Below are positions 2,306 to 37,821 of a stretch of 64,000 nucleotides of DNA, piece by piece. Numbering within the stretch: the stretch's first letter is position 1; each line of letters begins with the position of its first letter. The stretch is from the NCBI RefSeq assembly GCF_037042905.1, contig NC_087251.1:36644001-36708000 (forward strand), read 5' to 3'. Source of the stretch: Lytechinus pictus. Lineage: Eukaryota. The position numbers and the translations under genes are program-made. The notes under the pieces were generated by a model. That model did not search any database, was not told the origin of the DNA, and was given only the letters and a program-made list of their open reading frames with translations.

Positions 2306-4880
2306 GAGATCAGAGCAGCACCTTTAGCCAGGTGGTTCCTGTGGTCCTGGACCTGAACAGTCATCTGTGGAAGTGGCTGGCCAAGGGGGGGGGGGGAATG
2401 CAGGCACATTGTTGTGGCAATGAGGGACTTCCTTCAGCGAAGATTCTAAGGAATTTTGAAGTACGGCATGGTCCCAACTGGACCAGGGACCCACAATGAG
2501 CCCTTTGTGATCGCAGAACAGTGACTCATTGCCACAGAATGAATTTTTATCGTGGTGAATATTTTGAAGACTCTTTAAGTAGCGAAACTTTATTTTAAAA
2601 AATAAAAAATTCTCTCCTTGTGATTTTTTTCCAAAACCAAAAACTTGGAGATTGTCGTTTTGGAAACTTTAAAAGGTGAATAGAAAATGATACGTCGTAG
2701 TGCCGCTCTTCTGCTTGTAAACAGTTAGTGTGTACAGCGTACACTACAAGCCACTGAACTCTTGCCTTGCTCGCATGTGCGAAGGTGCGGCAAAAGCTCA
2801 TAGCTCATTGGTTTATCAAGCATAACGTAACTGTAAACTTCGTGCACACTGCCCCTGCCGGCCCAGCCCAAGACAGATTTCATTCATAACAAGTGGAACG
2901 CCTCTGGCAGTCTCGCCTGCATTACGCAATTTAATATAGCAGCAGTGCTAACTTTGAAAACTACTATAAAATAATCATTCACAAAAACATCATTCATATA
3001 ATGACATAATACCACGTTCATTGACCATAAATGACATTTGAACGGAGACTTAAGACTGTCAACTACACCCATGTCCACATTTCATTCACTCTATCCATAA
3101 ACTTTCAAAGTTATGATGGCACTTCAACAATTACCCCAACATGGCCTAAGTTTATTGACCTAAACTGACCTTTGATTTGGTTTTGTGACCTGAATCTCAC
3201 AGGGGATGTTCAGTGATGCTTGATTACTCTTATATCCCAAGTTTTATGAACTAGATCCATAAACTTTCACAGTTAGGATGGTAATTCAACAAATACCCCC
3301 AACACGGCCAAAGTTCATTGACCTTTAATGACCTTTTACCATAGTCATGTGACCTGAAACTCGTACAGGATGTTCAGTGATACTTGATTACTCTTATGTC
3401 CAAGTTTTATGAACTAGATCCATAAACTTTCAGAGTTAGGATGGTAATTTAACAAATACCCCCAACATGGCCAAAGTTCATTGACCTTAAATGACCATTG
3501 ACCATGGTCATGTGAACTGAAACTCGCACAGGATATTCAGTGGTACTTGATTAACCTAATGTCCAAGTTTCATAAACTAGATCCATAAATTTTCAAAGTT
3601 ATGATAGTAATTCAACAAATACCCCCAACTTGACCAAAGCTCATTGACCCTAAATGACCTTTGACCTTGGTCACGTGACCTGAAACTCGAGAAGGATGTT
3701 CACTAATACTTGATTAACCTTATGCCCAAGTTTCATGAACTAGGTCCATATACTTTCTAAGTTATGATGTCATTTCAAAAACTTAACCTTCGGTTAAGAT
3801 TTTGAAAATAATTTTCCCAACATGGTCTAAGTTCATTGACCCTAAATGACCTTTGACCTTGGTCATGTGACCTGAAACTCAGGCAGGATGTTCAGTAATA
3901 CTTGATTAACCTTATGTCTAAGTTTCATGAACTAGGTCCAAATACTTTCTAAGTTATCATGTCATTTCAAAAACTTAACCTTAGGTTAAGATTTGATGTT
4001 GACGCCGCCGCCGCCGTCGCCGTCGGAAAAGCGGCGCCTATAGTCTCGCTCTGCTATGCAGGCGAGACAAAAATGGACATGTAAGTGGGGCTGTGGCTTC
4101 TCGCGCAAATACAGAACTCCAAGGGTGGGTATAAAAGTGGAATTTTAGTGATGAAAACTTGTGCAGCATCTGAGAACTTAGAATTAATGTGAGGCTGTGA
4201 GCATGGTAATTTAATGTTGTTCAATTAAATATTTATTCGCTTGTTTACAACTCCCACGCAAGTTTTATGCAGATGATACAGTGTACACGGTCATAGAATT
4301 CCGTACACGTGCACTGACTTGACCCTGCGTGTACACGTATACCCAAAACAGGCCTAAAATTGTTACATTTCTTTTCTATCGTATCTGATTTATTGCAGGT
4401 AACTAGATTGATCAAGAATTACAAGATATATGTATTTTAAGATTTGTTTCCATTTTTATTTTCATTACAGAGCTTGTCATCAGTATGGCAGAGAGAAGGC
4501 TAAGTAATGCAGAAGATGTAGAGAGGGGGAAGGAATGGCAACCAACAGCACCATCAAGGATGAGGAGATGCCAGCAAAATTCCTGCGTTTAACAGCTAAA
4601 TACCGAATGATTCCCAAGCGAGTAAAGAGTGGGGGCAAAGACAAAGCAAGGGCTCAGCTGAACAACTACCTTGCAACAGAAACTAACGGCCAAGATGCCA
4701 TCACCTTCTGGGCCCCTGGCAATTCTGCCCGTGTTAAATACCCAGCCCTTCACCTACTTGTCATGAAAATCCTCGGTGTTCCTGCAAGTAGCACACCTAT
4801 TGAGAGGGAGTTCAACACAGGTGGAATTATACATGTAGGGCTTGTTTAAACCCTGTGATGGTTGAAAAGTGCAACAAGCA
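2306..4880 (+). pseudogene. Degenerate, intron-split hAT (Ac/ZBED-like) transposase, C-terminal part
   Basis: After acceptor ttcag (2301-2305) the sequence reads GDQSSTFSQVVPVVLDLNSHL. After a frameshift in a G-run it reads HIVVAMRDFLQRRF*GIL. After acceptor ttacag (4470) it reads LNNYL...AITFW...KYPALHLLVMKILGVPASSTPIEREFNTGG, which matches the hAT C-terminal dimerisation motif. Stops and frameshifts are present, and a HINE lies between the two pieces. Confidence 0.8.
2888..4072 (-). mobile_element. Non-autonomous Helentron-type element (HINE; DINE-1/Tsp-like) with internal ~163-bp tandem repeats
   Basis: On the + strand: AACAAGTGGAA.., subTIR GTCTCGCCTGCAT, ~5 repeat units, (GCC)n microsatellite, then GTCTCGCTCTGCTATGCAGGCGAGAC hairpin and AAAAA. 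Ends lie in A/T runs with no TSD. Confidence 0.85.
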
Positions 4881-9799: not shown

Positions 9800-10768
9800 A
9801 ACAAGTGGAATGCCTCTGGCCGTCTCACCTGCATCACGCAATTCAATATAGCAGCAGTGCTGATTTTGAAAACTACTATAACTCGCACAAGATGTTCAGT
9901 GATACTTGGTTACTCTTATTTCCACGTTTTATGAACTAGACCAATACACTTATAGAGATATGATGGCAATTCAACAAATACCCCCAACATGGCCAAAGTT
10001 CTTTGACCTTACATGACCTTTGACCTTGATCATGTGACCTGAAACTTGCACAGGATGTTCAGTGATACTTGATTACTATTATGTCCAAGTTTTATGAACT
10101 AGACCAACACACTTTCAAATTTATGGCTGTAATTCAACAAATACCCCAATTTGGCCAAAGTTCATTGACCCTAAATGACCTTTGACCTTGATCATGTGAC
10201 CTGAAACTTGCACAGGATGTTCAGTAATACTTGATTACTATTATGTCCAAGTTTCATGAATCAGATCCATAAACTTTCAAAGTTATGATGGTAATTCAAC
10301 AGATACCCCCAATTCGGCCAAAGTTCATTGACCCTAAATGACCTTTGACCTTGGTCATGTGACGTGAAACTCATGCAGGATGTTCAGTGATACTTGATTA
10401 ACCTTATGTATAAGTTTCATGAACTAGGTCCATATATTTTCTAAGTTATGATGACATTTCAAAAACTTAACCTTAGGTTAAGATTTTGATGTTGATTCCC
10501 CCAACATGGTCTAAGTTCATTGACCCTAAATGACCTTTGACCTTGGTCATGTGACATGAAACTCAGGCAGGATGTTCAGTAATACTTGATTAACCTTATG
10601 GCCAAGTTTCATGAACTAGGTCCATATACTTTCTAAGTTATGCTGTCATTTCAAAAACTTAACCTCAGGTTAAGATTTGGTGTTGACGCCGCCGCCGCCG
10701 TCGCCGCCGCCGCCGCCGTCGGAAAAGCGGCGCCTATAGTCTCACTCTGCTATGCAGGTGAGACAAAA
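9800..10768 (-). mobile_element. HINE (Helentron-type) copy with 5 internal repeat units
   Basis: subTIR GTCTCACCTGCAT / ATGCAGGTGAGAC, ~162-164-bp units plus one 192-bp unit, (GCC)n tract, A-run ends. Confidence 0.9.
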
Positions 10769-11154
10769 ACTTGATTTCCCCCTAGTTCATCGTTTTTTTT
10801 TTATGACTGGCCGTCTTCCTAGTCTTGTGATAAACCCTGATATCTTTACTTGGGCACTCGATTGGTGTCGGCACTTGACAGGTGAATGATATTTCTCATG
10901 GGAGTGGAAAGAAGTCACCAGCGCTGACGAAATAAACGGCAGTGAATGGAAATGCCGAAATCATAATAAATGAAAACAATCCTTGCAAACAAGGATGCAT
11001 CCCCCTTTTGAATTGATATTACTCTGTGTGTGTCTACATGTATACAGACTAATCCACATGAGTATGGCAGTGGATCATATTGCTAAACACATTTCATAAA
11101 TTTAATAATATCAAACACAACATTTGTTATCTTAAAATTCTTACTCTTACTCTT

Positions 11155-11350
11155 CTTCGGTTTGGGACCCTCATACCAAAGAGCTTATCTCTAAGACTGA
11201 AATGGTTCAGCGGCGTGCAGCTATAGATTTATAAAAGGTGATTACGACTGACAGAGCAGTGTCACACAAATGATGAAAGAACTACGGTAGCAGTCTCTTC
11301 ATAAACGACGAGCTCACAACAAAGTCATCATGATGTACAGAATTGTACAG
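11155..11350 (+). pseudogene. Short decayed CR1-group LINE ORF2 C-terminal fragment
   Basis: Translates with stops and a frameshift as VWDPHTKELISKTEMVQRRAA..FIKGDYD*QSSVTQMMKEL..QSLHKRRAHNKVIMMYRIV, a typical post-RT motif. Confidence 0.75.
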
Positions 11351-12307
11351 CTGCACCACCTTTCCTGTCAACTTTTTAGCACCTCTCTTCACAAGAAAAA
11401 TGTTTTGGTTACTTGAAAATTGCAGGCCTATCGTATTTAAAAAAAAAGAAAAAAGGAAGCCCGATGGTGGCGCTAATAAATTTCACAGCCTACATTCAGC
11501 TCCTCGGTAATTTTATAACTGTGTCTAAATTCTTTGAATGCGCAATTCTTATGATTACTTGATAAAATATGGGCACTGATAAAATAAATGAAATATCTTC
11601 AAAAACATAATTTAAGATCATTATTGGTGATAACACTTTTCTGCAAATAATGATGGCTAATCTAAAAAATCTTAGAAGATCTACCTTGACCAAAACCAGC
11701 AGTGCAGTACAAGCTTTATTTTTAAAGGACAAGTTCACCCCAACCAAAAGTGGATTTGAATAAAAAGAGAAAAATCCAAAAAGCGCAACACTAAAATTTC
11801 ATCAAAATCGGATGGAAAATTAGAAAGTTATGACATTTTAAAGTTTAATTAATTTCACAAAATAGTTATATTCACATCCTGGTTAGTATGCAAATGACGG
11901 AACTGATGACATCACACACTCACTACCGTATTTCTTTTGTATTTTATAATATGAAATATTCTAATTTTCTCCTCATTGTCCTGTGAAACAAAGTTTTATT
12001 TAGTACTGAACATGTTGAATTACCATTGTTTAACATTTTATGGTTCAGTCAAGTTGGTCTTTATTGTCAAATCTGTAAAAACCTAAATATTGTATGATTC
12101 AATCAATAAAAAACAAAAGAAATAGTGAGTGAGGGACATCATCTATTATCCAGTCTCATTTGCATGTGACAAAATTTGGGGAAAATAAGCAAAACTTTAA
12201 AATGTCATAACTTTCTTATTTTACATCCGATTTTTATGAAATTTTCAGCATTTATGCTTGTCTGATTTTTCTTTCTTGATTCGAATCAACATTTTTCTGC
12301 TCTGAGG

Positions 12308-12813
12308 CACTTGTTCACTGCAACCACCCTGCCTGTCGGGAATCTACAGGTTGGACTATGGCATGCCAATGCTGTACAGAGCACACACCTTAAAAAATGA
12401 TTAAAATATCACTTTTGTGACCAAAATTACTAATTTCCGTACAGTTGCAAATTTATTTTTCATTAGTAACTTGGGAATAATTTTTGTATTCACTAGAGCG
12501 CTCAAAAACTTGAATTTTTGGCATATTTTTGTGTACGCCCTCTATTGGTGGAAAATAATATGGCAAGAAAATTTTCATTTTTTAATCTCTATTTTTAATT
12601 AAGAAAAAAATAATTTAAAGTTTCTAATCAAATTTACTTAAGGGCCAAGTTGTATGACGAATAGGTGTAATGGAAACTGTCAGTGTAAAAAAATCAAGCA
12701 TTTGTCCCAAAGAAAAAGAGAAAATAAGCCAAACATTGCCATCCTTATTTTGCCACACATGGAGATATAACTGAGAACAAGGTTATATCATAACCTTGTT
12801 CATTGAATGAGTG
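12308..12813 (+). mobile_element. CAC...GAGTG element, type A (8-bp TSD, 3' subterminal hairpin)
   Basis: Starts CACTTGTTCAC. Ends GAACAAGGTTAT-ATC-ATAACCTTGTTC ATTGAATGAGTG. CTCTGAGG at 12300-12307 and 12814-12821. Confidence 0.8.
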
Positions 12814-12821
12814 CTCTGAGG

Positions 12822-13604
12822 CACCCATGGGTACATTACCGCCGCCGTGCACAGGATAACCGCTGGCACGGCACTTGCAATAAGTTTTTTATTCTTATGT
12901 AAAAATTAGAAATTTATCTACATTTTACATGAAGTAAGCTTTGGATATGAAACTTACCAAACGATATGAAGCCAATTTCAATTCCTCTCTGTCTTTCTGG
13001 TACTTTATATCGATGATTTGTCTTAAAGTCGAAGCAGGCATGGCGCCGATTCGATGGTTCTCTCTATACGCACAGAGAGGGCGCGCGATATTATTTAATA
13101 AACTTGCTTGTTTACGTCGTTTACGTCAGATCAGCTGTACTGCTGGTTGCGTTCTAGGCGCTCCGCATTTTTTTCGCTGTTCAGCGTTATTTTATGATGT
13201 AGCGCCATCAGCGATTATACGTGACATGCAACCTGTTGATTTTTGGTACAATTTTTATGCGCCGGCGACTTGAATCTAGACTGTTCGATAGGAAAAATTC
13301 GCATTTCGATTGTTGTTTGCGTAATTTCCACCGCAGTATAAAGGATGACTAAGGATGGATCGAACGAAGTATCGTGGTTGAGATTTGGAGGTAAGCGATA
13401 AAAACACTTTTATAAATAATTTCTAATTCCTTTTTACAATGAACTTAAATCATACGATCAAGATTAACATAGTGGAAAAATATTGAAAGGTTTGGCGTGT
13501 TTTAGTCCCTCACATTCGTGTGATGAATGAAAACGTCAAAACGCACTATGAAATCACATGCGTTGTGCGAGGTTGGTATACTAACCTCGCATGTTGTGTG
13601 AGTG
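12822..13604 (+). mobile_element. CAC...GAGTG element, type B, copy 1
   Basis: Starts CACCCATGGGTACATTACC. Ends GCGAGGTTGGTATACTAACCTCGC ATGTTGTGTGAGTG. Flanked by (G)CTCTGAGG. Highly similar to the copy at 18305-20513. Confidence 0.85.
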
Positions 13605-13731
13605 GCTCTGAGGTGGACTTGACCTTTAAGAAGATCTGTCAATGTATTGTTTGCCGTTGAGGGTGTTCTTTTATATAAGAATTACACAGATACCCGTATG
13701 CGTAGTTGTAGACAAGTCAGGGGGCACTGAG

Positions 13732-14280
13732 GGCGCTAATGCAGTTTCGCACCGGCCGATTACCAGCATACCTCATCACCAATGTCATGACAAGTTTCTC
13801 AGTCACATTTCGAGGTCAATATACCCACCTCTTTTCCAAATATCGCGATCGGGAACGGCTGTATTTCAGCTTTGATCTCGATGTCGTTGTTCGAATCCTC
13901 AGACATCACTTCGCAGATCGCTTGGATTCGCCGTAATGTTGATATGGACTAAATTTATGCGACCAAAAGATTCGCCTGTAGCATGCTGGCAGTTTGTTCG
14001 CCACATGTTCGCATGATTTGGTTGCTAACTTCAGTCAGTCCATATCAACATTACGGCGCACGGCGAATCCAAGCGATCCGGGAAGTGATGTCTGAGGATT
14101 CGAACAACGACATCAAATGATCAAGATCAAAGCTGAAATACAGCCGTTCCCGATATTTGGAAAAGAGGTGGGAATATATTGACCTTGAAATGTGACTGAG
14201 AGACTTGTCATGATATTTGGGAACAAATATTGGTGATGAGGTATGCTGGTAATTGGCCGGTGCGAAACTGCATTAGCGCC
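13732..14280. mobile_element. Palindromic MITE, Merlin-like (GG...CC termini, 8-bp TSD)
   Basis: Inverted arms of ~220 bp, GGCGCTAATGCAGTTTCGCACCGGCC... / ...GGCCGGTGCGAAACTGCATTAGCGCC. TSD GCACTGAG at 13724-13731 and 14281-14288. The superfamily call is inferred from termini and TSD length. Confidence 0.85.
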
Positions 14281-14351
14281 GCACTGAGCAGTGCAGTCAG
14301 ACTTGGAACCCTAATCATATCACCACTCACACTTGTACGAGGTTAGTATGG

Positions 14352-15223
14352 CAGTGTATCCTATTGCCGGACACCTTTATTTCAGTGCTTTAAAAATGAC
14401 AACTAGAGGAAATACAATCAAGAAAAATTCACACTTGCTATTCCAAATATTATGAAAATTATGAATGTGATAAAATTATTTTATATTTACCAACCATTTT
14501 CTTTGCATCGCACTTGCTGCATACCCCTCCACGAAAAACAATTATTTTCGTGCGCGACAAATTACATCATGATTCCGGACGCGCGCCGGACGGGTATAGA
14601 TATCCTTGATTATCGATGTAAGAACAAATTTGTGTGATTTTTTTGTTCTTATATCATATCAAGAGTAAATTATAAGTTTTCATTTGCTTTTTTATATCGA
14701 ATCTGAGCAGATGTTGCTAATAAATTCGTGTTTGATAACTTATTTTGTTTTTTCTTGTTAGCTGCATGTTCCATGGCACTTTCCAATAATAATATGCTCG
14801 CGTTCGTATCGTGACGCTCATCAAGTTCTATCGATGCGCTGCCGATCGACGGCTCTACTCACGGTAAACCTCGCAAACGGGTACCTTGAGAACTAGCCGT
14901 AGACGATCACCCGCAATACACCACACCTCATCATTCGATCGAAGGAGTGGACGAGATTGAAATTCGGCAAATCAGGCCCATATTTCCATTAGAAAATATA
15001 TCAATTGTTAATGCAAAACTATGTTATATGATATTTTAAGCATTTTCTGTCATTTTAGAGATAAATAAGGTAAAAGTTGGATTTTTGGGCCTTGTTTTTG
15101 CAATCTTGTTCTATGTATTGCTCTGTGAAATTGAATTGCGAAAGTCTTGAGGTACGAAATTGTTTTCGAACGCAGTAATATGCGCGTCCGGAATCATAAT
15201 AGTGTCCGGTAATACAATACGTG
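14352..15223. mobile_element. TIR element inserted in the loop of element C's terminal hairpin
   Basis: Imperfect TIRs GTATCCTATTGCCGGACAC / GTGTCCGGTAATACAATAC(GTG). The C hairpin arms GTACGAGGTTAGTAT (14335) and ATATTAACCTCGTAC (15240) flank it. Confidence 0.6.
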
Positions 15224-16121
15224 ACTAAAAACTGACTATATATTAACCTCGTACACCGAACCCTGTTTGACCCTTGATTTCTAAGTAGTCGGCAAACATC
15301 GCTTCATTGCTGAAGTAATATTTGCCGAAACTCCTTCTCGCTACTCACCGGGGCTCTTTCCGGTAAGTAGCAATACATTAAAGAATTTAAAATGTAATTT
15401 GAATATAATAATCGGTCAAAAAGAGCAAATTTCGCTTACCTCGGCCTCGAAAGTAACTTCGCTTATCTCTTCTACGGAAATACAAGGAGGCCCGTTGGTG
15501 GCGCTAATAAATTTCACAACCTTGATTCAGCTCCTCGGTAATTTTATAACTGTGTCTAAATTCTTTGAATGCGCAATTCTTATGATTAATTTACTAATTA
15601 TGGGCACCAATAAATGAAATACCTTCAAACATGTCAAAAACATAATTCAAGATTATTATTGGCAATGATAACACTTTTCTGCAATTAATTTAAAACGATG
15701 ACTAATAATGAAAAATTGAAAAAAATATACGTGCCTGGAACGAAACCAGCAGTACAGGCTTTAACGAGCATCAATAATACGGTATACCAAAGTCTTTACA
15801 ATGAAAAGATTGGACACTTCACGGACTTTGCGTAATGACCTGCGTCAATTTGCGTGTAAAATAGTGTAGGTGCCTAGTCTTTCCCTTGTTGTGTCTTTAG
15901 TTTGATATGAATATAAATCGCGCGCCCTCTTTAGACGAAAATTGATATCGGCGCTGACCAAATTTTATCTCCGTGAAATCTTCACTAAAGATCAAGAAAA
16001 TATACATATTTTTTAGAAGAAACTTCAAGGAGAAGTCACGGAAGGATCTAAATGATTGGGTAAGTGTCATAGCAGAATGTGAAATCCCTAATTATGTGTG
16101 ATGTTTTATGCGGTATTTTAT

Positions 16122-18255
16122 AGATGGCAAATATAGCGATCTTCAACGCTTATATATAAGCGTCGAAATTTGTAGCCATCTCCTTGTATTAGTCTATAAT
16201 ATACGACGTGTCAAATTGTAGCGAACTAGTTCGCTATTTCCAGATCTCCTCTATATATATATATACGAGGGGGAATTGTAGCGAACTAGTTCGCTATTTT
16301 CCAGATCTCCTCTATATATATATATACGAGGGGGAATTGTAGCGAACTAGTTCGCTATTTTCTAGATCTCCTCTATATACAAACGACAGGAAATTGTAGC
16401 GAACTAGTTCGCTATTTTTCGGATCTCCTCGATATATATACACGAGGGGGAATTGTAGCGAACTAGTTCGCTATTTTCCAGATCTCCTCTAGATACATAC
16501 TACGGGATTTGTAATTTTTCGGATTTCCTCTATATATATATACGACGGGAAATTGTAGCGAACTAGTTCGCTATTTTCCAGATCTCCTCTATATATATAT
16601 ACGACGGGAAATTGTAGCGAACTAGTTCGCTATTTTTCGGATCTCTTCTTTTGTAGCGAACTAGTTCGCTATTTTTCGGATCTCCTCTATATACGACAGA
16701 AAATTGTAGCGAACTAGTTCGCTATTTTTCGGATCTCCTCGATATATACACGAGGGGGAATTGTAGCGAACTAGTTCGCTATTTTCCAGATCTCCTCTAG
16801 ATACATACTACGGGATTTGTTCGCTATTTTTCGGATTTCCTCTCCCTATATATACGACGGGAAATCATAGCGAACTAGTTCGCTATTTTCCAGATCTCCT
16901 CTTTATATATATACGACGGGAAATTATAGCGAACTAGTTCGCTATTTTTCGGATCTCTTCTTTTGTAGCGAACTAGTTCGCTATTTTTTGGATCTCCTCT
17001 TGATATATACGACGGAAAATTGTAGCGAACTAGTTTGCTATTTTTCGGATCTCCTCTATAAAATTTTATACACGAGGAGGAATTAGTGAACTAGTTCGCT
17101 ATTTTTCTAATCTTTATATATACAAGAGACGGAATTGTAGCGAACTAGTTCGCTACAATTCCCCCTCGTGTATATAATTTTATAGAGGAGATCCGAAAAG
17201 TAGCGAACTAGTTAGCTACAAATCCCGTCGTATGGATATAGAGGAGATCTGGAAAATAGCGAACTGGTTCGCTACAATTCCCCCTCGTATATATATATAG
17301 AGGAGATCTGGAAAATAGCGAACTAGTCTGCTACAATTTGACAATATGGCATCAATATATACAGCCAAAACCTGCAGATTTTCACTTTGAAGCCTTCACA
17401 ATAATGTAAGCTTTGGAAAAAATGACAACTAGTTCGCTACAATTTCCCCCTCGTGTATATGAAGAGATCAGAAAAATTGCCAACTAGTTCGCTACAGTTT
17501 GCCATGTTTATATTTTAGAGAGGAGATGAGAAATGGCGAACTAGTTTGCAACAATTTCCTGTCGTATACATGTAGAGGAGATTCGAAAAATAGCGAACTA
17601 GTTTGCTACAATTCCCCCCTGGTGTATATATAGAGGAGATCAAAAAAAATAGCGAACTAGTTCGCTACAATGCCCCCTCGTATATAGTTCGCTACAAATC
17701 CCGTCGTATGTATATAGAGGAGATCTGGAAAAATAAAAAAATAGCGAACTAGTTTGCTACAATTCCCCCTCGTGTACATATCGAGGAGATCCGAAAAATA
17801 GCGAACTAGTTCGCTACAAATCCCGTAGTATGTATATAGAGGAGATCTGGAAAATAGCGAACTAGTTCGCTACAATTCCCCTTGTGTATATATCGAGGAG
17901 ATCCGAAAAATAGCGAACTAGTTCGCTACAATTTCCCGTCGTTTGTATATAGAGGAGATCTGGAAAATAGCGAACTAGTTCGCTACAATTCCCCTCGTGT
18001 ATATATCGAGGAGATCCGAAAAATAGCGAACTAGTTCGCTACAATTTCCCGTCGTTTGTATATAGAGGAGATCTGGAAAATAGCGAACTAGTTCGCTACA
18101 ATTCCCCCTCGTATATATATATATAGAGGAGATCTGGAAATGGCGAACTAGTTCGCTACAATTTGACACGTCGTATATTATAGACTAATACAAGGAGATG
18201 GCTACAAATTTCGACGCTTATATATAAGCGTTGAAGATCGCTATATTTGCCATCT
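16122..18255. mobile_element. Foldback-type element with inverted minisatellite arms
   Basis: Perfect terminal inverted repeat of >100 bp, AGATGGCAAATATAGCGATC... / ...GATCGCTATATTTGCCATCT. TAT on both flanks. Arms are built of ~60-bp units containing the palindrome TAGCGAACTAGTTCGCTA. Confidence 0.9.
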
Positions 18256-18344
18256 TATTATTTCCCTGTTTTATGTGGGCGAAAGCCCAGTAGTATATGG
18301 ATGTCACCTATGGGTACATTACCGCCGCCGTGCACAGGATAACC

Positions 18345-19776
18345 CACTGGTTCACCCCGACCATTCGCCATACAGAAAAATGTACGGGGTGGGACTGATC
18401 TGAGACCAGTGCCGCTAACACTGTCATTTCTATGTAGGAACGCGCGAAGTAAAAGAGTCTGACTTACCAATTCTTGTGTTGACCCAAATGCAGATTTTGG
18501 TTCTACTTAAACAGGATTCCAATGCCCAATGAGTCAAATATCGTCCTTCAATTGAAGATTTCTTTCTAAATCGGGTAAAATCATAAGGAAATTTTTCCTT
18601 ATTCTTGTCTGGTCCATAGTCTCCTACGTAAGTATTTCAGCACGCCCTCTTGTGCTGAATAAAAGAAAGCTAGCCACTGAACAGTGGCAACCACAGAGCT
18701 GGTTACAATAAGCTCCTACCTGTTTCCGGTGAAGCATAATAATAGGAAGCTCCGCGATCCGGGGACTGTAGTCTTTTTCTCACCTGACACCACTAACATA
18801 CCTAAGGGGCAGGGAGGGCACACTGCACCCCCTGACGAGTCACAACTCATGCAAGGGACGTACCCCTGCCCCCCTGACGAGTCACAACTGATCCCTGTGA
18901 CGAGCCACAAGTGGCCCCCTCTTTTGAACTTGAAGACCTTTTTTTTTTTTTTTTTTTTTAATTTTTTGGCGGACGAATTTGCCCCCCCCCCTTGGAAAAT
19001 CCTGGGTACGCCACTGCCTGACACTCAATATTTTGTTCACTATTTTTTTTTTTACACAAGAATTATTGTTGTCACAGGCGGCGGAGGGGGGGGGTACACA
19101 TTCAATACCCCTTAAATTTCAGGAGGAGGGGAGAGTTCCCCTTAAGAAATAAAGAAAAAGAAAAAAACAAAGAACAAAGACTGAGAAAAAAGTAAGAAAT
19201 AAAAAATCAAATAAATTAATTTACGCTCAAAAGAAAAAGAAAGAAAGGGTAAGGGAAGAGGAAAACAGACAAATGATGCTCTGGATACAGAACTAGAAAT
19301 ATTATAGATAAGCCCCCCAAAATAGCCATTTGGAGTTTTTGGACTTTTTTATTCTTTAAACATGTTTATCTAGACGAAACAAAATTGCCAATCTGTCGAG
19401 GCTATCGAGACATGTTTACCAGAATGCATCACGAGTAGTGTTTCATCCATCCGGGTGGATGAACCTCTATGGCTTCGTGATATTTTTTTTCTTTTTCGAT
19501 TTGTCACGATCAAACACCATTGAACGAACCAAGAGTAGTGACGGTCACCGGAGGTGGAAAAATCTGTGAGTTTTTAGTCATTTTTCATATTATTTTCATC
19601 AATTAGATCATATTTGTTATATAAATTTATGTCAAGTATCACACTTGATCTAGTTCGATAAGGTCATGATGTTTGGGTGAGGGAAGAGGAGGAAAATAGT
19701 CGATGCTTTTTTTGGCCATGCTAGTGTATACACACGAGAACGAGGTTATATTATAACCTCGTTCGTAGGATGAGTG
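18345..19776 (+). mobile_element. CAC...GAGTG element, type A', nested 40 bp inside B copy 2
   Basis: Starts CACTGGTTCAC. Ends GAACGAGGTTAT-ATT-ATAACCTCGTTC GTAGGATGAGTG. TSD GGATAACC at 18337-18344 and 19777-19784. Confidence 0.88.
18791..19016. mobile_element. hAT-like MITE nested in A'
   Basis: TSD CCTGACAC at 18783-18790 and 19017-19024. Right end GGGTACGCCACTG; degenerate left end CACTAACATACCTAAGGGG. Internal CCCCCTGACGAGTCACAACT repeats. Confidence 0.75.
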
Positions 19777-21731
19777 GGATAACCGCTGGCACGGCACTTG
19801 CAATAAGTTTTTATTCTTATTTAAAAATTTGAAATTTATCTACATTTTACATTAAGTAAGCTTTGGATATGAAACTTACCGAACGATATGAAGCCAATTT
19901 CAATTCCTCTCTGTCTTTCTGGTACTTTATATCGATGATTTTTCTTGATGTCGAAGCAGGCATGGCCCCGATTAGCTGGTTCTCTCTATACGCACAGAGA
20001 GGGCGCGCGATATTATTTAATAAACTTGCTTGTTTACGTCAGATCAGCTGTACTGCTGGCTGCGTTCTAGGCGCTCCGCATTTTTTTCGCTGTTCAGCGT
20101 TATTTTATGATGTAGCGCCAGCAGCGATTATACGTGACATGCAACCTGTTGATTTTTGGTACAGTTTCCTATTATGCGCCGGCGACTTGAATCTAGACTG
20201 TTCGATAGGAAAAATTCGCATTTCGATTGTTGTTTGCGTAATTTCCACCGCAGTATTAAGTATCGGACGGAGTAACTGGCTGAGATTTGGAGGTAAGCGT
20301 TTAAAATCCATTTTTATAGATAAGTTCGTGCTGATTTTTAAAATTAGATTACATTATAAGATTAAGATTACTAAATTTAGTATATTGTGAAGATTTAGGC
20401 GTGTTTCATATTCTCAGTTTCGTGTGATGAATGAAAACGTCAAAATTCATTATGAAATGACATGCGTTGTGCGAGGTTAGTACCGTATACTAACCTCGCA
20501 TGTTGTGTGAGTGATGGATGTGTCGTGTGTGTCGCGTTATTATGAATGATATTCCTTCGCACGCGAGATGATATGAGCCCATGGCCATGCCCATGGTAGA
20601 CAGCTGGCAGCCGTCTGTTTCGAGGAGTTTTTTAACATTTTTTTTTAAAATAAATTTCTCCTCATACACAGACGGCTCGCTAGCGTGCAGCCACCATTAG
20701 GGGACTTGCAATGCAAAATCCCCCCGTCGGGGCTCTTCAATTTTTGTCTTTAATGAGTAAAAATTTTGAAAATTCACGCGACCAAAATGCAAATTAATAT
20801 TCCCTCTTGGCATCAATTGCCAAAAAAACGGAGAAAAATCAAGTTAAAAGGAACAAAAACAGTGACTTACCTCAGCTGTCGCGCAAATTCACTTCCCTGT
20901 TTTATCCGATCTTAAGTACATAAACATATGGCCATTGAGTCCCCTGTACAGATCGCGCTAGAACTTCGGTCTCTGTATTTGGTGAGTGAAGCCAACGGAG
21001 TTCAGCTGAACAACCAACATAACAGAGACCGAAGCTTTTGGTCTATGCCCATGGGTGCATATCACCGCCACACGGCCACCGGTAGTATCGAGTCCCTAGC
21101 GATAGCCCGAGCTCCGCCCGACTTCGGCGGCGGAGGAGACCCCTCGGGCCCGAATGAGACTCATGAGACAGTCATGCTGACTAGCAAGCAAAGTCAATTA
21201 AAGAAAAACAAAACTCTAAGTAGCATCAAAATTCTCATCACTCTTTATCATATACAGTCAAAGCATACGCAATTCAAAGGTACAGGATTCATCTTGTTTA
21301 ACGAATCGGGTACACTCACCTGTAAATTTAAAAAAAGAAAACATCACATTTGCATCACCTTTTCGTACCGGTAGCGCGTACCGGTAGTACCGACTCCCGA
21401 TATCCCAGTTCTTGTATGGTATCTTATAGATCCAGGAGCTACTGCACTGGATTCGGTCTGGATTGGCTATAATATCCGGCGGGATATACGGTAACTTGGC
21501 TTCGTTCTGAACTTGCTTGATTTCCTGACATATCATTTAATACATTACATTATTTTCTTTCAAACCAACATATTATTTTTTTATGGAATGATTCAGATAA
21601 CAAAATTTGAAGCCAAATCTGCCGGGGTGAGTTTGCATCGCCGCCCGGCATCGCCGCAATTATATTGCTGCTGATGCATTGTGCCGATCGAATGATGGGA
21701 TGAGGCGGAGGATGCTCATAAAGATGATGAT

Positions 21732-21904
21732 CAGTGACGGATCCAGGTAGGGGTACATTCGGTGTGCCCCCCCCCCCCTTGAGAGGCACATTTTCAGGGG
21801 AATATGCCATGCACAAGCAAGTGAGGACCTTTTTTTTTGCTTGTCAAATTTTCCGTGTACGAAAAAGCCCCCCGCCCCCCCCCCCCCCTTGATCCGCGCA
21901 CCTA
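21732..21904. mobile_element. hAT-like MITE inserted in an (ATG)n microsatellite
   Basis: CAGTGACGGATCCAGG... / ...TTGATCCGCGCACCTA, with ATGATGAT on both sides. Confidence 0.6.
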
Positions 21905-22576
21905 ATGATGATGATGATGATGGTTATAATGATGGCGATATGATGATGATGATGAGGTATCCGGTAATATATACTGAAGTTTAACTTTGTAAGTTAAAAA
22001 AAAAATATTCAAAACTCAATACTAGAGTTTCGAATTTCCAGGGTTCAAATCGAACAGATTACAATACTAAAAAATACGACTGAAAAAAAATCACCAACAC
22101 TTACGGAGACCAATCAAGGGGGCGTTGCCCCCCCCCCCCCCCCGCAAAAAAAGAGGGAGGAAGAGGGGGGAAGGAAGAAAATCAAGAAAAAGAGAGAGAG
22201 AGAAAGAGGGGGAAAGAAAGAGAAGAGAAAAGAGAGATGAAGAGGGGAAAGCAACAGTTCTCGATGCCGTTATAGTTTTCGGCTCCAATGTCGCCGTTGT
22301 TTTAGGTTAGGACATAAAGCAAAGTCCTGTTTGTTAGAATATTAGGTCTTCGGCCAAGATGAGAGAGCCGAATTCAACTCTTTTCACTGTAACCCATATC
22401 TTGCTCCGCATGACTCTTCAATTAACCAATGTAATTATGCGTCTCCAACAACTGAAATTAACTCTGTTTCACGTTATGATGATAGTTTTTCAACTGATAG
22501 TTATCAATCAAATAACTGTGCTTATGAAATTCATGCTGATATTCTTCGGAAATATAATAGTCTTAAAATTGCCCAT

Positions 22577-25500
22577 ATGAATGTTCGAAGTATTTTTGGT
22601 AAACTTGATGAAATTAGCTTTCTATTAAAAAAACTAGATCTTGATATCTTATGTATATCCGAAACGTGGTTGAGCAATGCAATAAAAGATGGTATGATTA
22701 ATATCGATAATTACAGTTTATTAAGATTAGATAGAAGTAGTAAACGTGGAGGTGGAGTATGTATGTATATTCGTAGTACTTTATCTTTCTGTCGACGGCA
22801 TGATTTAGAGCATAATTCCCTAGAAGCATTATGGATAGAATTAAAATTAAAACACGAAAGTTTGATTATAAGCTGCTTATATAGACCTCCAAATTCTCAG
22901 TCCGAATTCTTTGATCATTTATTCAATGTCTTAGAATTGACATCAATTGACAATAAGAAATTGTGTATACTTGGTGATATTAATATTGATTATTTTGATA
23001 CCAAATGTAGTGGGAAAAAAAATATTGATGACATGGAGAACCTTTTTCTTCTAACTCAACTGGTAAATAAACCCACAAGGGTAACTCTGACAACATCCAA
23101 ATGTATTGACCATATTTTTTCAACTAATCCTAATGATCATTTAATAACAAATGTTGCACCGATTTCTCTCAGCGACCACTACTTGACTTATACATGTCTT
23201 AATTTTAGAAATCAGTCTACTAGCCATAAAACAGTGCGTTTCAGGAATTATAAAAAATTTGACCAAAAGTTATTTCTTGATGATTTATCCAAAAGTTCAA
23301 TATGCAATGATAATTTTTCGTGCAACGATGACATAAATACCGTATGGAAGAGTTGGAAAAATATTTTCCTTGATATATGTCATAAACATGCTCCCCTTAA
23401 AGGAGAATGAAACTCTTGGAGCAAGTTAGCTTTTGTGAAAGCAGAAAAATCAAAGAATAAGATCAACAAAAGTTTGAGTAAAATAGGACTAGCAATAGAA
23501 GAGTTATGAGCATTTGAATGTCGAGATCACTAATGCTATGGTGATCCTCCCATTGGCAATGCGACCAAGATCTATGATGTCACAGATGAACAACTCTCCC
23601 CTTTTGGACACTGAAAATATACCCCAAAATATCTCGTTTTGCTCATTCTAACCATATGACAAACGATTCATCAATGATATAATGTTGTGAAACCTCTGTA
23701 CTTGTCCTCTCATAAAGAGAACACCTCACCTTGTGATAGACTCTATAAAAGTGAGAATATAAGTGAAATAAGTACTAAAGTAATGAGGGAGTTGTACGTG
23801 TGTGACATCACAGATCTTGGTCGCATTGCCAATGGGAGGATCTACATGGCATTAGTGATCTCAATATTAAAATGCTCATAACTTTCTTATTATTCATTCA
23901 ATCTTCCTCAAACTTTCAACAATATGTTTCTTTGATTTTTCTCTTTGATGTGGATTCAGCTGGTTTCAAGGGTTTCATTCTCCTTTAAAGTTATCAGAGT
24001 TAAAGAACGTTACTCTCCGTGGATAACTGGTGAAATTATTGATCTTATGTACCGGCGTGATTTCTTGAAAAGAAAATATTGTAAATCAAAAGCGGTAGAT
24101 AATCTTCATCATGTTAAAGAATATCGTATTGTAAGAAATCAAATTACTAAATTAATAAGAAAATCTAAACGTCAATACTTTTCCGAGATTTCCACTAAAT
24201 ATAAACATGATCCAAAGAAATTATGGAATGAACTTACTTTGATGACTGGAAATACAAAAAACAAAAATGATGTTCCAGCTGAATTAGACTGTAACACAAT
24301 GAATGATTATTTTATTAATGTAGGCAAAAAATTTAATTACAAAGAAAAGGATATTAATTGGAACCAACCACAGTGTATATATGAATTTGATTTTGAGCAT
24401 GCTAAACCTGATGAAGTGTTAAAACTGCTCTTGAGTCTGTCATCCACAAGTAACCTAGATGTTATGAATTTTGATTCTAAACTTCTACGTTTAGCTGCAC
24501 CTCTTATTTATAATTCACTAAGTCAAATTTTCAATTTAAGTTTATTGTCAGGTATAATCCCAGACGACTGGAAAAAGTCAAGAACAACACCTATATATAA
24601 GGGTAAAGGATCAAAATCAGATAAGTCAAACTATAGACCAATTTCAGTCGTTTGTCATATTTCCAAATTAATTGAAAAAACTGTTCAAAAACAACTTCTC
24701 GCTTATTTACAAAAGTTTGATCTTATCAATATTGATCAGTTTGCTTTCATTCCTAACCACTCAACTGTCACCTCCTTACATAGAGTTATTGACGATTGGT
24801 ATGGGGCATTCAATAAACGTGAAGTTGTCGGGGCATGCTTCCTTGACATTTCTAAATGCTTCGATTCAATCGATCACAAGCTATTACTATTCAAATTAGA
24901 AAAATACGGCATTACTCGTAATTCATTGAAATGGTTTGAATGTTATTTAAGTAACAGAAAGCAAATGGTCTGTTGCCATGGTGAAATGTCATCATATAAA
25001 GATGTAGATATCGGAATTCCGCAAGGGAGTGGGCTTGGCCCGGCTCTTTTTCTCTTAATAATTAATGATATTTCTACTTGTCTCAACAGTGGTGAATGTA
25101 ATATTTTTGCTGATGACGTGGTAATTTATGATTATGGTTCCGATGTCAATGAAGTTACTTTAAAAATGCAAAAGAATATCGACAATGTTAAAAAATGGTA
25201 TGATAAAAACCACTTAAGTATAAACGTCAGTAAGACAAAGGTAATGCTGTTGAGAAATAGGTCTTATTCATGCGATAAGATTAATATTTTTATTGATAAT
25301 AATTTGGTGGAACAGGTGAAATCTATTAGATACCTCGGTGTTGAAATTGATGAAAATTTGAATTGGAGTTCGCACGTTAATCATATATCCAAAACATTAG
25401 CCTACAAGATATTTTCACTCGGTAAACTAAGACAATTTTTGAATAAATCCCACCTTAACACTCTTTATATGACAAATGTTTTGCCAACTTTAGATTATGC

Positions 25501-25939
25501 CATTTCTGTTTGGGGAAATTATATTGGTAAAAGGGAACTAGATCACTTAACACGATTACAAAAAAGAGCAGCACGCTACGTTGCAGGTAATTTTGATTAT
25601 GTTAACAGCCGTGGTGAAGATCTCATGAAGGAACTCAAATGGCCTACTATTGAGCAAAGACGTGATTATTTTTTAGCCAATATTATGTTTAAGTGTATAC
25701 ATGGAATGGCTCCTATCAGATTATGTAATAATATTGAGTTGGTAGTTGATAGGCATGACATAAGAACTAGAAATTGTGATACACTCAATGTTATACCACC
25801 CAAACCGAATTTGGAATGTTTTAAGAGGTCTTTTTTATTTTCAGGATAAAAAATCTGGAATAATTTACCACATTTTCTTCAAAATCTACCTTCAATTAAC
25901 TCCTTTAAGAGAATGTATAAAAAGCTCTTCCAATGTTAA
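22577..25939 (+). pseudogene. LINE ORF2 (APE endonuclease + reverse transcriptase), disrupted by a MITE (23401-23988) and one nonsense codon (25847-25849)
   Basis: APE motifs: NVRS, CISETWL, RGGGV, LYRPP, LGDIN, IDHIF, SDH. RT motifs: NYRPIS, FLDISKCFDSIDH, GIPQGSGLGP, FADD, YLGV. Removing the MITE and one TTAA restores HAPLKVIRVKER in frame. Reading through the TAA at 25847 gives KIWNNLP...SFKRMYKKLFQC* ending at 25939. Confidence 0.95.
23401..23984. mobile_element. Kolobok-like MITE inserted in LINE ORF2 (unedited)
   Basis: TTAA TSD (23397-23400, 23985-23988). TIR AGGAGAATGAAAC / GTTTCATTCTCCT. Inverted arms of ~190 bp. Confidence 0.93.
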
Positions 25940-35442: not shown

Positions 35443-36208
35443 AACAAGTGGAATGCCTCTGGCCGTCTCACCTGCATCACGTGATTCAATATAGCAGCAG
35501 TGCTGATTTTGAAAACTACTATAACTCGCACAAGATGTTCAGTGATACTTGGTTACTCTTATTTCCACGTTTTATGAACTAAACCCATACACTTATAGAG
35601 ATATGATGGCAATTCAACAAATACCCCAAACGTGGCCAAAGTTCTTTGACCTTGATCATGTGACCTGAAACTTGCACAGGATGTTCAGTAATACTTGATT
35701 ACTATTATGTCCAAGTTTCATGAATCAGATCCATAAACTTTCAAAGTTATGATGGTAATTCAACAGATACCCCCAATTCGGCCAAAGTTCATTGACCCTA
35801 AATGACCTTTGACCTTGGTCATGTGACGTGAAACTCATGCAGTATGTTCCGTGATACTTGATTAACCTTATGTATAAGTTTCATGAACTAGGTCTATATA
35901 TTTTCTAAGTTATGATGACATTTCAAAAACTTAACCTTAGGTTAAGATTTTGATGTTGATTCCCCCAACATGGTCTAAGTTCATTGACCCTAAATGACCT
36001 TTGACCTTGATCCTGTGACCTGAAACTTGCACAGGATGTTCAGTAATACTTGATTAACCTTTTGGCCAAGTTTCATGAACTAGGTCCATATACTTTGTAA
36101 GTTATGCTGTCATTTCAAAAACTTAACCTCAGGTTAAGATTTGGTGTTGCCGCCGCCGTCGGAAAAGCGGCGCCTATAGTCTCACTCTGCAATGCAGGTG
36201 AGACAAAA
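35443..36208 (-). mobile_element. HINE copy with 4 internal repeat units
   Basis: Same termini and subTIRs as 9800-10768 and near-identical to it, with one unit fewer. Confidence 0.9.
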
Positions 36209-36909: not shown

Positions 36910-37821
36910 AACAAGTGGAATGCCTCCGGCCGTCTCACCTGCATCACGCGATTCAATATAGCAGCAGTGCTGATTTTGAAAACTACTATAACTCGCACAA
37001 GATGTTTAGTGATACTTGGTTACTCTTATTTCCACGTTTTATGAACTAAACCCATACACTTATAGAGATATGATGGTATTTCAACAAATACCCCCAACGT
37101 GGCCAAAGTTCATTGACCTTACATGACCTTTGACCTTGATCATGTGACCTGAAACTCGCACAGGATGTTCAGTGATACTTTATTAGTCTTGTGTCCAAGT
37201 TTCAAGAGTCAGATCCATCAACTTTCAAAGTTATGATGGTAATTCAACAGATACCCCCATTATGGCCAAAGTTCATTGACCTTTGACCTTGGTCATGTGA
37301 CCTAAAATGCGCACAGGATGTTCAGTGATACTTGATTACTCTTATGTCCAAGTTTTATGAACTAGACCAACACACTTTCAAAGTTATGGCAGTAATTCAA
37401 CAAATACCCCAATTTGACCAAAGTTCATTGACCCTAAATGACCTTTGACCTTAATCATGTGACCTGAAACTTGCACAGGATGTTCAGTAATACTTGATTA
37501 CTATTATGTCCAAGTTTCATGAATCAGATCCATAAACTTTTAAAGTTATGATGGTAATTCAACAGATACCCCCAATTCGGCCAAAGTTCATTGACCCTAA
37601 ATGACCTTTGACCTTGGTCATGTGACATGAAACTCAGGCAGGATGTTTAATAATACTTGATTAACATTATGGCCAAGTTTCATGAACTAGGTCCATATAC
37701 TTTCTAAGTTATGCTGTCATTTCAAAAACTTAACCTCAGGTTAAGATTTGGTGTTGACGCCGCCGCCGCCGTCGGAAAAGCGGCGCCTATAGTCTCACTC
37801 TGCTATGCAGGTGAGACAAAA
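36910..37821 (-). mobile_element. HINE copy with 5 internal repeat units
   Basis: Same termini and subTIRs. It lacks the 192-bp variant unit. Confidence 0.9.

Follow-up and report, generated by a model that had tools for sequence, protein, structure and literature searches.

Five elements clustered in a 64,000-nucleotide stretch of Lytechinus pictus DNA (contig NC_087251.1, positions 36,644,001 to 36,708,000, here called the window) were analyzed and are almost certainly real non-autonomous DNA transposons. The best reading is that the elements, labelled A, A', B1, B2 and C, form at least two lineages of cut-and-paste elements, A/A' and B/C, that are moved in trans. Since the elements encode nothing, the transposase would act in trans. 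The initial annotation had described a single non-autonomous family without proper terminal inverted repeats (TIRs); the non-autonomous character and the missing TIRs stood, whereas the single family gave way to at least two lineages with one end type. The window consists of repeat-rich animal DNA with 32-45% GC. In place of tests across the whole genome, the analysis used controls within the window, public contigs and scans for the end motifs. The elements, in window coordinates and with their target site duplications (TSDs), are the following.

12308 to 12813, forward strand: element A, 506 bp, 5' end CACTTGTTCAC and 3' end GAGTG; 8-bp TSD at 12300-12307 and 12814-12821.
12822 to 13604, forward strand: element B1, 783 bp; 9-bp repeat at 12813-12821, also found at 12299-12307, and at 13605-13613.
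14324 to 21057, reverse strand: element C, 6734 bp with nested inserts; 8-bp TSD at 14316-14323 and 21058-21065.
18305 to 20513, forward strand: element B2, 777 bp of its own sequence plus A'; 8-bp TSD at 18297-18304 and 20514-20521.
18345 to 19776, forward strand: element A', 1432 bp; 8-bp TSD at 18337-18344 and 19777-19784.

The five boundaries first proposed were correct, all with CAC starts and GAGTG ends, and the proposed 5' motifs were recovered, CACCYATGGG in B1, B2 and C and CACTKGTTCAC in A and A'. The flanking repeats are exact and 8 bp long in four of the five elements: CTCTGAGG for A, CATATCAC for C, ATGGATGT for B2 and GGATAACC for A'. The claim of exact 8-bp TSDs holds for these four and not for B1, which, when ended at GAGTG, is flanked by the 9-bp repeat GCTCTGAGG. 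Because the same 9-mer also stands to the left of A, the length of 9 bp holds in either insertion order of A and B1. The 5' tip of B1 contains a 10-bp palindrome at 12823-12832. No target motif was common to the four insertion sites, with at most one of 58 columns identical.

The boundaries were compared with chance expectation using 200 Markov resamples of positions 1-39,000. Seven CAC..GTG pairs with exact 8-bp flanks occur in this region, whereas the resamples had 1.2 on average and never more than 5. Four of the seven are elements described here; among the other three, two are at 11915/11917-23802/23804 and one is within the 16-18 kb satellite. The combination of a hairpin and a GAGTG end occurs four times in the same region and in none of the 200 resamples, a post hoc test given that the pattern was taken from the earlier observation. 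Across the window, all hairpin ends lie within this single cluster.

An empty site was found within the cluster itself. B1 has a single GGATAACC at 12854-12861, while in B2 element A' sits between two copies of it. This uninterrupted sequence in B1 proves where A' ends and that its insertion duplicated 8 bp. A and B1 have in turn inserted into another element.

11726 to 13625: host element, a small TTAA-flanked inverted-repeat element with AGG..CCT ends, presumably Kolobok-like, with A and B1 in its right terminal repeat.

Contigs from four of the 24 listed public runs were compared with positions 11700-16100, a range that excludes B2, A' and the 5' end of C; runs with small word shares were left out. 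Among the joints listed, 11 of 15 skip from 12249-12297 to 13607-13610, with matched sides that are short (19-27 letters). The skipping joints represent related copies of the host element without A and B1, which are paralogues and are not shown to be alleles. In one run (X1), one contig starts exactly at 12308, the 5' end of A, after 43 unlike letters, another starts exactly at 12822, the 5' end of B1, after 12 unlike letters, and another ends at 12813, the 3' end of A, with 4 letters beyond. In a second run (X2) the summed depth over A was 290,000-550,000, compared with depths of 18-43 for the contigs listed in that run. This depth fits a very abundant family, although read depth was not taken as a copy count and gives no copy number. 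The occupied site at 12295-12307 has five extra bases before the TSD relative to the paralogue consensus, with a loose end at 12299, and these are candidates for a micro-duplication or the scar of an earlier excision.

The 5' and 3' ends are unlike and only their 3-4 terminal bases match (CAC..GTG); in element A the ends match at 8 of 10 positions, with two mismatches. When the first 200 nt of each element were aligned with its last 200 nt, no convincing inverted repeat emerged in four of the five elements, where 78, 192, 286 and 74 of 300 shuffles scored as high. The end-to-end match of B1 was equalled by 6 of 300 shuffles, but it is an AT-rich internal stretch. The very short terminal matches without proper TIRs noted at the outset were therefore borne out. 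At the 3' end only, there is a subterminal inverted repeat.

12775 to 12801, forward strand: hairpin at the 3' end of A, with GAACA/TGTTC as its outer arms and 12 nt between it and the terminus.
13566 to 13591, forward strand: hairpin at the 3' end of B1, with TGCG/CGCA as its outer arms and 13 nt between it and the terminus.
19738 to 19764, forward strand: hairpin at the 3' end of A', with GAACG/CGTTC as its outer arms and 12 nt between it and the terminus.
20470 to 20500, forward strand: 3' hairpin of B2, a perfect 13-bp stem, 13 nt from the end.
14334 to 14349, reverse strand: outer (right) arm of the split repeat of C, 10 nt from the GAGTG end, pairing at 15 of 16 positions with the left arm.
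15240 to 15255, reverse strand: inner (left) arm of the split repeat of C, of the GTACG/CGTAC type.

The AGGTT and AACCT core of the 3' end is invariant and present in all five elements. The spacer between AGGTT and AACCT is 7, 7, 8 and 13 nt in the four complete ends, and the distance from AACCT to the terminus is 17 nt in four of the five elements and 16 nt in C. Between lineages the outer arms differ, yet they remain paired, and C has a third outer-arm type. In the four complete ends all 40 of 40 cells were paired and three of ten pairs had changed on both sides, a result equalled by 5 of 500 shuffles. This covariation is suggestive only, because there are four complete ends from two lineages and the structure was read from those same sequences. 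The initial annotation had placed a hairpin in each element, 12-14 nt from the end. This is true of A, A', B1 and B2; in C, where the stem is nearer to the end, the last 60 nt do not fold into a hairpin and the partner arm is 890 nt off. Between the 5' tip of A (12310-12320) and the right arm of the 3' hairpin of A (12795-12805) there is a direct repeat that matches at 10 of 11 nt; it was not significant against shuffles and is not clear in B or C.

Two stretches of foreign appearance lie within C, and one of them separates the arms of its 3' repeat.

14350 to 15236: insert E, in the loop of the hairpin of C, right boundary placed to within about 4 nt, with a possible TAT duplication and imperfect inverted ends.
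16122 to 18255: foldback stretch inside C, with tandem units of about 57 nt and 197-nt inverted arms that are 99% complementary.

Three listed contigs match C up to 14343-14348 and then continue unlike it, so that E behaves as a separate repeat. The insert of about 890 bp is accordingly read as a probable later insertion into the hairpin loop of C. It contains imperfect inverted repeat pairs at 14356-14380/15196-15220 and 14566-14584/15182-15200. Both a TIR element and an element of the Helentron type are candidates for its identity. The foldback stretch is probably a later insert as well; a TAT trinucleotide is all that is common to both of its sides. Near the 5' end of C there is a perfect 13-nt inverted repeat (20964-20976 and 21022-21034, 45 nt apart) with a 12-bp palindrome between its arms, which has no counterpart in B. 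A possible sixth element at 11061-11707, lacking a hairpin and a GAGTG end, was not counted. Its decayed pieces match the left end of E (11061-11094, 82%) and the interior of C (11453-11707, 80%). Their order and strand agree with those in C, and they are truncated by the TTAA element.

The interiors had been described as different in all of the element types. A and A' agree with that description: their last 41 nt align with a score of 52, compared with a shuffle maximum of 30, and their first 47 nt or so look alike, while the interiors do not align. B and C do not, as they share three collinear blocks, with 12 common 10-mers against a mean of 1.4 and a maximum of 8 in 200 shuffles, which makes them distant relatives. 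B1 and B2 are 97% identical in the 5' part (427/440) and 86% identical in the 3' part (235/274), and the read depth on the 3' part of B is about a hundredfold above that of the 5' part. These two contrasts indicate that B is a mosaic with a borrowed common 3' end.

The possibility was considered that the elements are Helitrons, Helentrons or retroposed copies whose flanking repeats arose by chance. The hairpin lying 10-13 nt inside the 3' end does resemble Helitron ends. However, this explanation is extremely improbable in view of five 8-9-bp duplications of four different targets, one of them proven by the empty site. The TT/AT target rule, the CTRR end and the poly-A tail are missing, the 5' ends are fixed, and there was no Rfam match in 11000-22000. 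Helitrons, Helentrons and Replitrons share the one-ended subterminal hairpin and the asymmetric ends with the elements described here. They differ in their absent or irregular TSDs and dinucleotide targets (PMC10288648). Dada elements likewise have no TIRs and form tandem insertions separated by the TSD, but they have a 6-bp TSD, strict targeting of small-RNA genes and short inverted repeats split between the ends (PMC3706591), whereas the targets here are other repeats. AcademH elements have TSDs of 9-10 bp.

The elements are stacked. Eight nucleotides separate the end of A from the start of B1, A' is inserted 40 nt inside the 5' end of B2, and B2 is nested in C in the opposite orientation. 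In runs X2 and X3 the 3' end of a B element is joined through 8 nt to the 5' end of an A element, the order opposite to that of A-B1. Such joints raise the possibility of P-superfamily derivatives with eroded TIRs, for which CA..TG ends, an 8-bp TSD, unlike ends and tandem double insertion would all be expected. Drosophila P and zebrafish P-like elements have 8-bp TSDs and functionally unlike ends that differ in internal spacing (PMC7776569), and their tandems have one 8-nt TSD between the elements (PMC5932611), as in A-B1 and the B-A joint. The 17 nt between AACCT and the terminus in four of the five elements equal the length of the staggered donor cut of P, which may be a coincidence. On the other hand, the described P elements have 13-31-bp TIRs and subterminal inverted repeats between the two ends (PMC7776569, PMC5932611); the match here is confined to 3-4 terminal bases, and no repeat of that kind stood out. 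P elements would also be expected to show a target consensus, and the four sites have none. The only P-type Pfam match, from one of 52 frames, was below the cut-off (E 0.04), and most of it falls within insert E. A P origin is thus considered unlikely.

The search against Pfam covered 52 frames. Of these, 48 came from the elements, with those of the foldback and a few others of the 88 listed frames left out. No match above the Pfam cut-off, to a transposase or otherwise, was found in the 48 element frames. A hAT dimerisation-domain remnant just above the cut-off at 4508-4846 lies 7 kb away, outside the ends of these elements. It is very unlikely that the elements are hAT-type non-autonomous elements with very short TIRs. 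The termini of hAT elements are CAG/TAG, as opposed to CAC here, and the terminal match is only 3-4 bases. The 8-bp TSD counts in their favor, as hAT usually makes TSDs of this length (PMC12730594), and so does the presence of the remnant.

Non-TIR derivatives of Mutator-like elements (MULEs) are a further candidate, although a doubtful one. Nested cargo, as in C, fits the habits of MULEs, and to our knowledge non-TIR MULEs are known from plants only. Given that such elements exist, the missing long TIRs do not exclude a MULE. Muta1 of Aedes aegypti shows no sequence preference in its 8- or 9-bp TSDs and carries a terminal palindrome of 10 bp (PMC5225508). The four sites described here also lack a target consensus, and B1 combines a 9-bp repeat with a 10-bp palindrome at its 5' tip. 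In contrast, Muta1 has 145-bp TIRs with tandem subterminal repeats, and TIRs are present in 14 of 14 Aedes MULE families and exceed 100 bp in 12 of them (PMC5225508). Moreover, 8 bp predominates among the TSDs here.

Tentatively, the likeliest source of the partner enzyme is the Kyakuja/Dileera/Zisupton (KDZ) group, because it is the only group in the literature examined with both 8-bp TSDs and CA..TG ends without TIRs. Zisupton and Dileera have 8-bp TSDs, while those of Kyakuja are 7 bp long and its CA..TG ends come without TIRs (Kojima 2025, PMC12730594); in KDZx1 TIRs are not detectable (PMC11343200). Sea stars are reported to have Zisupton homologues (PMC9297572), and others are annotated in a sea urchin (PMC13745590). 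Presence in marine deuterostomes is, like the TSD length, a point of likeness. The 5' ends of 27 of the 51 KDZ rows in Table S1 of PMC12730594 were compared, using the first 400 nt of each. Nine of the 16 Kyakuja 5' ends start with CAC, and seven of the 16 carry CCCATG at positions 4-9, compared with positions 3-8 in B1 and C. Kyakuja-1_LB and Kyakuja-2_LB resemble the elements here in their CA..TG termini without TIRs, and the likeness extends to the many CAC starts and to the several cases of CCCATG within the first 9 nt. They differ in being fungal, coding elements of 9-31 kb, and the sequence comparison covered their 5' ends. Excerpts of three other articles (PMC12477816, PMC11071193 and PMC5718144) contain nothing on termini, and the excerpts of the literature examined offer no explanation of how TIR-less transposons such as Kyakuja recognise their ends.

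The initial annotation had invoked Zisupton for its asymmetric subterminal repeats. In Zisupton these repeats reportedly pair one end with the other, as Böhne and colleagues are said to have described in 2012. In that form the argument does not fit, as the inverted repeat of the elements here is wholly at one end, and nothing clear that would pair the two ends was found in their terminal 200 nt. The copies here also differ from Zisupton and Dileera in having no transposase. Each of the families compared fails at least one tested feature, and the elements were therefore filed under none of them; in this respect the superfamily remains unassigned, as it was at the outset. By analogy, their mode of action would seem closest to that of KDZ elements without TIRs.

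Fixed ends flanked by 8-9-bp duplications of unrelated targets are the mark of staggered DDE-type strand transfer. In the proposed mechanism, a DDE-type transposase encoded elsewhere would cut at CAC/GTG and integrate by an 8(9)-nt staggered attack on the target DNA. Of the two unlike ends that the enzyme would recognise, the 5' end would be read through its lineage-specific tip and the 3' end by way of the AGGTT..AACCT repeat. With a spacer ranging from 7 to 13 nt, this repeat could act either as a symmetric site for two subunits or as an extruded cruciform. The invariant core points to a site read by its sequence, the paired arms and the variable spacer to a cruciform. Furthermore, the transposase would prefer to land at or near the ends of kin already inserted, an attraction that might come from enzyme already bound there.

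Several observations weigh against a partner of the KDZ type acting in this way. The TSDs are 7 bp in Kyakuja as opposed to 8-9 bp at the CAC..GTG boundaries here, and the likeness of the Kyakuja tip is one base off, fungal and missing from A and A'. The 5' ends of nine fungal Zisupton and two Dileera elements in the compared rows do not start with CAC, and KDZ1-3 of Cryptococcus have TIRs of 139-241 bp. A KDZ coding remnant (PF18758) was not found in the 48 element frames, and an autonomous element was not seen. The hairpin is split in C, the paired arm changes come from the same few ends, and template switching can perfect palindromes without selection. Finally, scans with the end motifs beyond the window gave two loci in viral contigs and 14 in a looser scan of them, one in metagenomes and three in prokaryote genomes, and a TSD-bounded CA start was absent at all 20. 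These loci were rejected as chance matches rather than copies of the family; two lay in phage genes, and none of the 14 loci of the looser scan had outer arms that pair.

The possibility was also considered that the elements belong to a lineage not yet described, with an enzyme that would recognise the 3' hairpin by its DNA structure, as in Helitron and IS200/IS605, and would integrate by a staggered double-strand attack. The paired arm changes, the variable spacer and the fixed distance to the end are consistent with such an enzyme, and no account of this end type was found in the literature searched, which did not cover Repbase Reports, Dfam or the Zisupton and AcademH descriptions. Such families may already be filed there, and an existing unclassified entry for these elements in Repbase or Dfam is quite possible. 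HUH elements are generally without a TSD, and the invariant AGGTT/AACCT core is what is expected of a sequence-specific binding site, both of which make this lineage improbable. We consider it distinctly unlikely that it would be an animal lineage standing between the HUH and DDE types, in which only one end is recognised, through an extruded hairpin, as by rolling-circle enzymes, integration is staggered and double-stranded, and the element homes to the ends of its kin.

Other repeats were observed in the window. An element of 549 bp at 13732-14280 is palindromic over nearly its whole length, has GGCGC at its ends and is flanked by an exact 8-bp repeat, GCACTGAG; its GG start and 8-bp TSD recall Merlin. 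A broken long interspersed nuclear element with endonuclease and reverse-transcriptase frames (Pfam) occupies 22346-25849; a relative of the TTAA host, likewise an inverted-repeat element, interrupts it near 23.4-23.9 kb. About 24 kb of a 186-bp satellite with strong strand skew and higher-order spacing is found in 39085-64000. Four copies of a repeat with tandem units of 146-163 nt and 192 nt are located at 3071-3994, 9880-10686, 35523-36149 and 36990-37713.

If the elements prove to be an already filed family, the value of these observations falls to annotation. Nonetheless, several unrelated interiors with one end type define a minimal signal, consisting of a CAC tip, the AGGTT..AACCT repeat, a distance of 16-17 nt and GAGTG. 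This signal provides a probe with which to search for the autonomous partner, and transposition assays could use it directly as a substrate. As the families look very abundant in the read data and have no TIRs, they are probably contained in the large "unknown DNA transposon" share of sea-urchin annotations, which amounts to 21.5% in one sea-urchin assembly.

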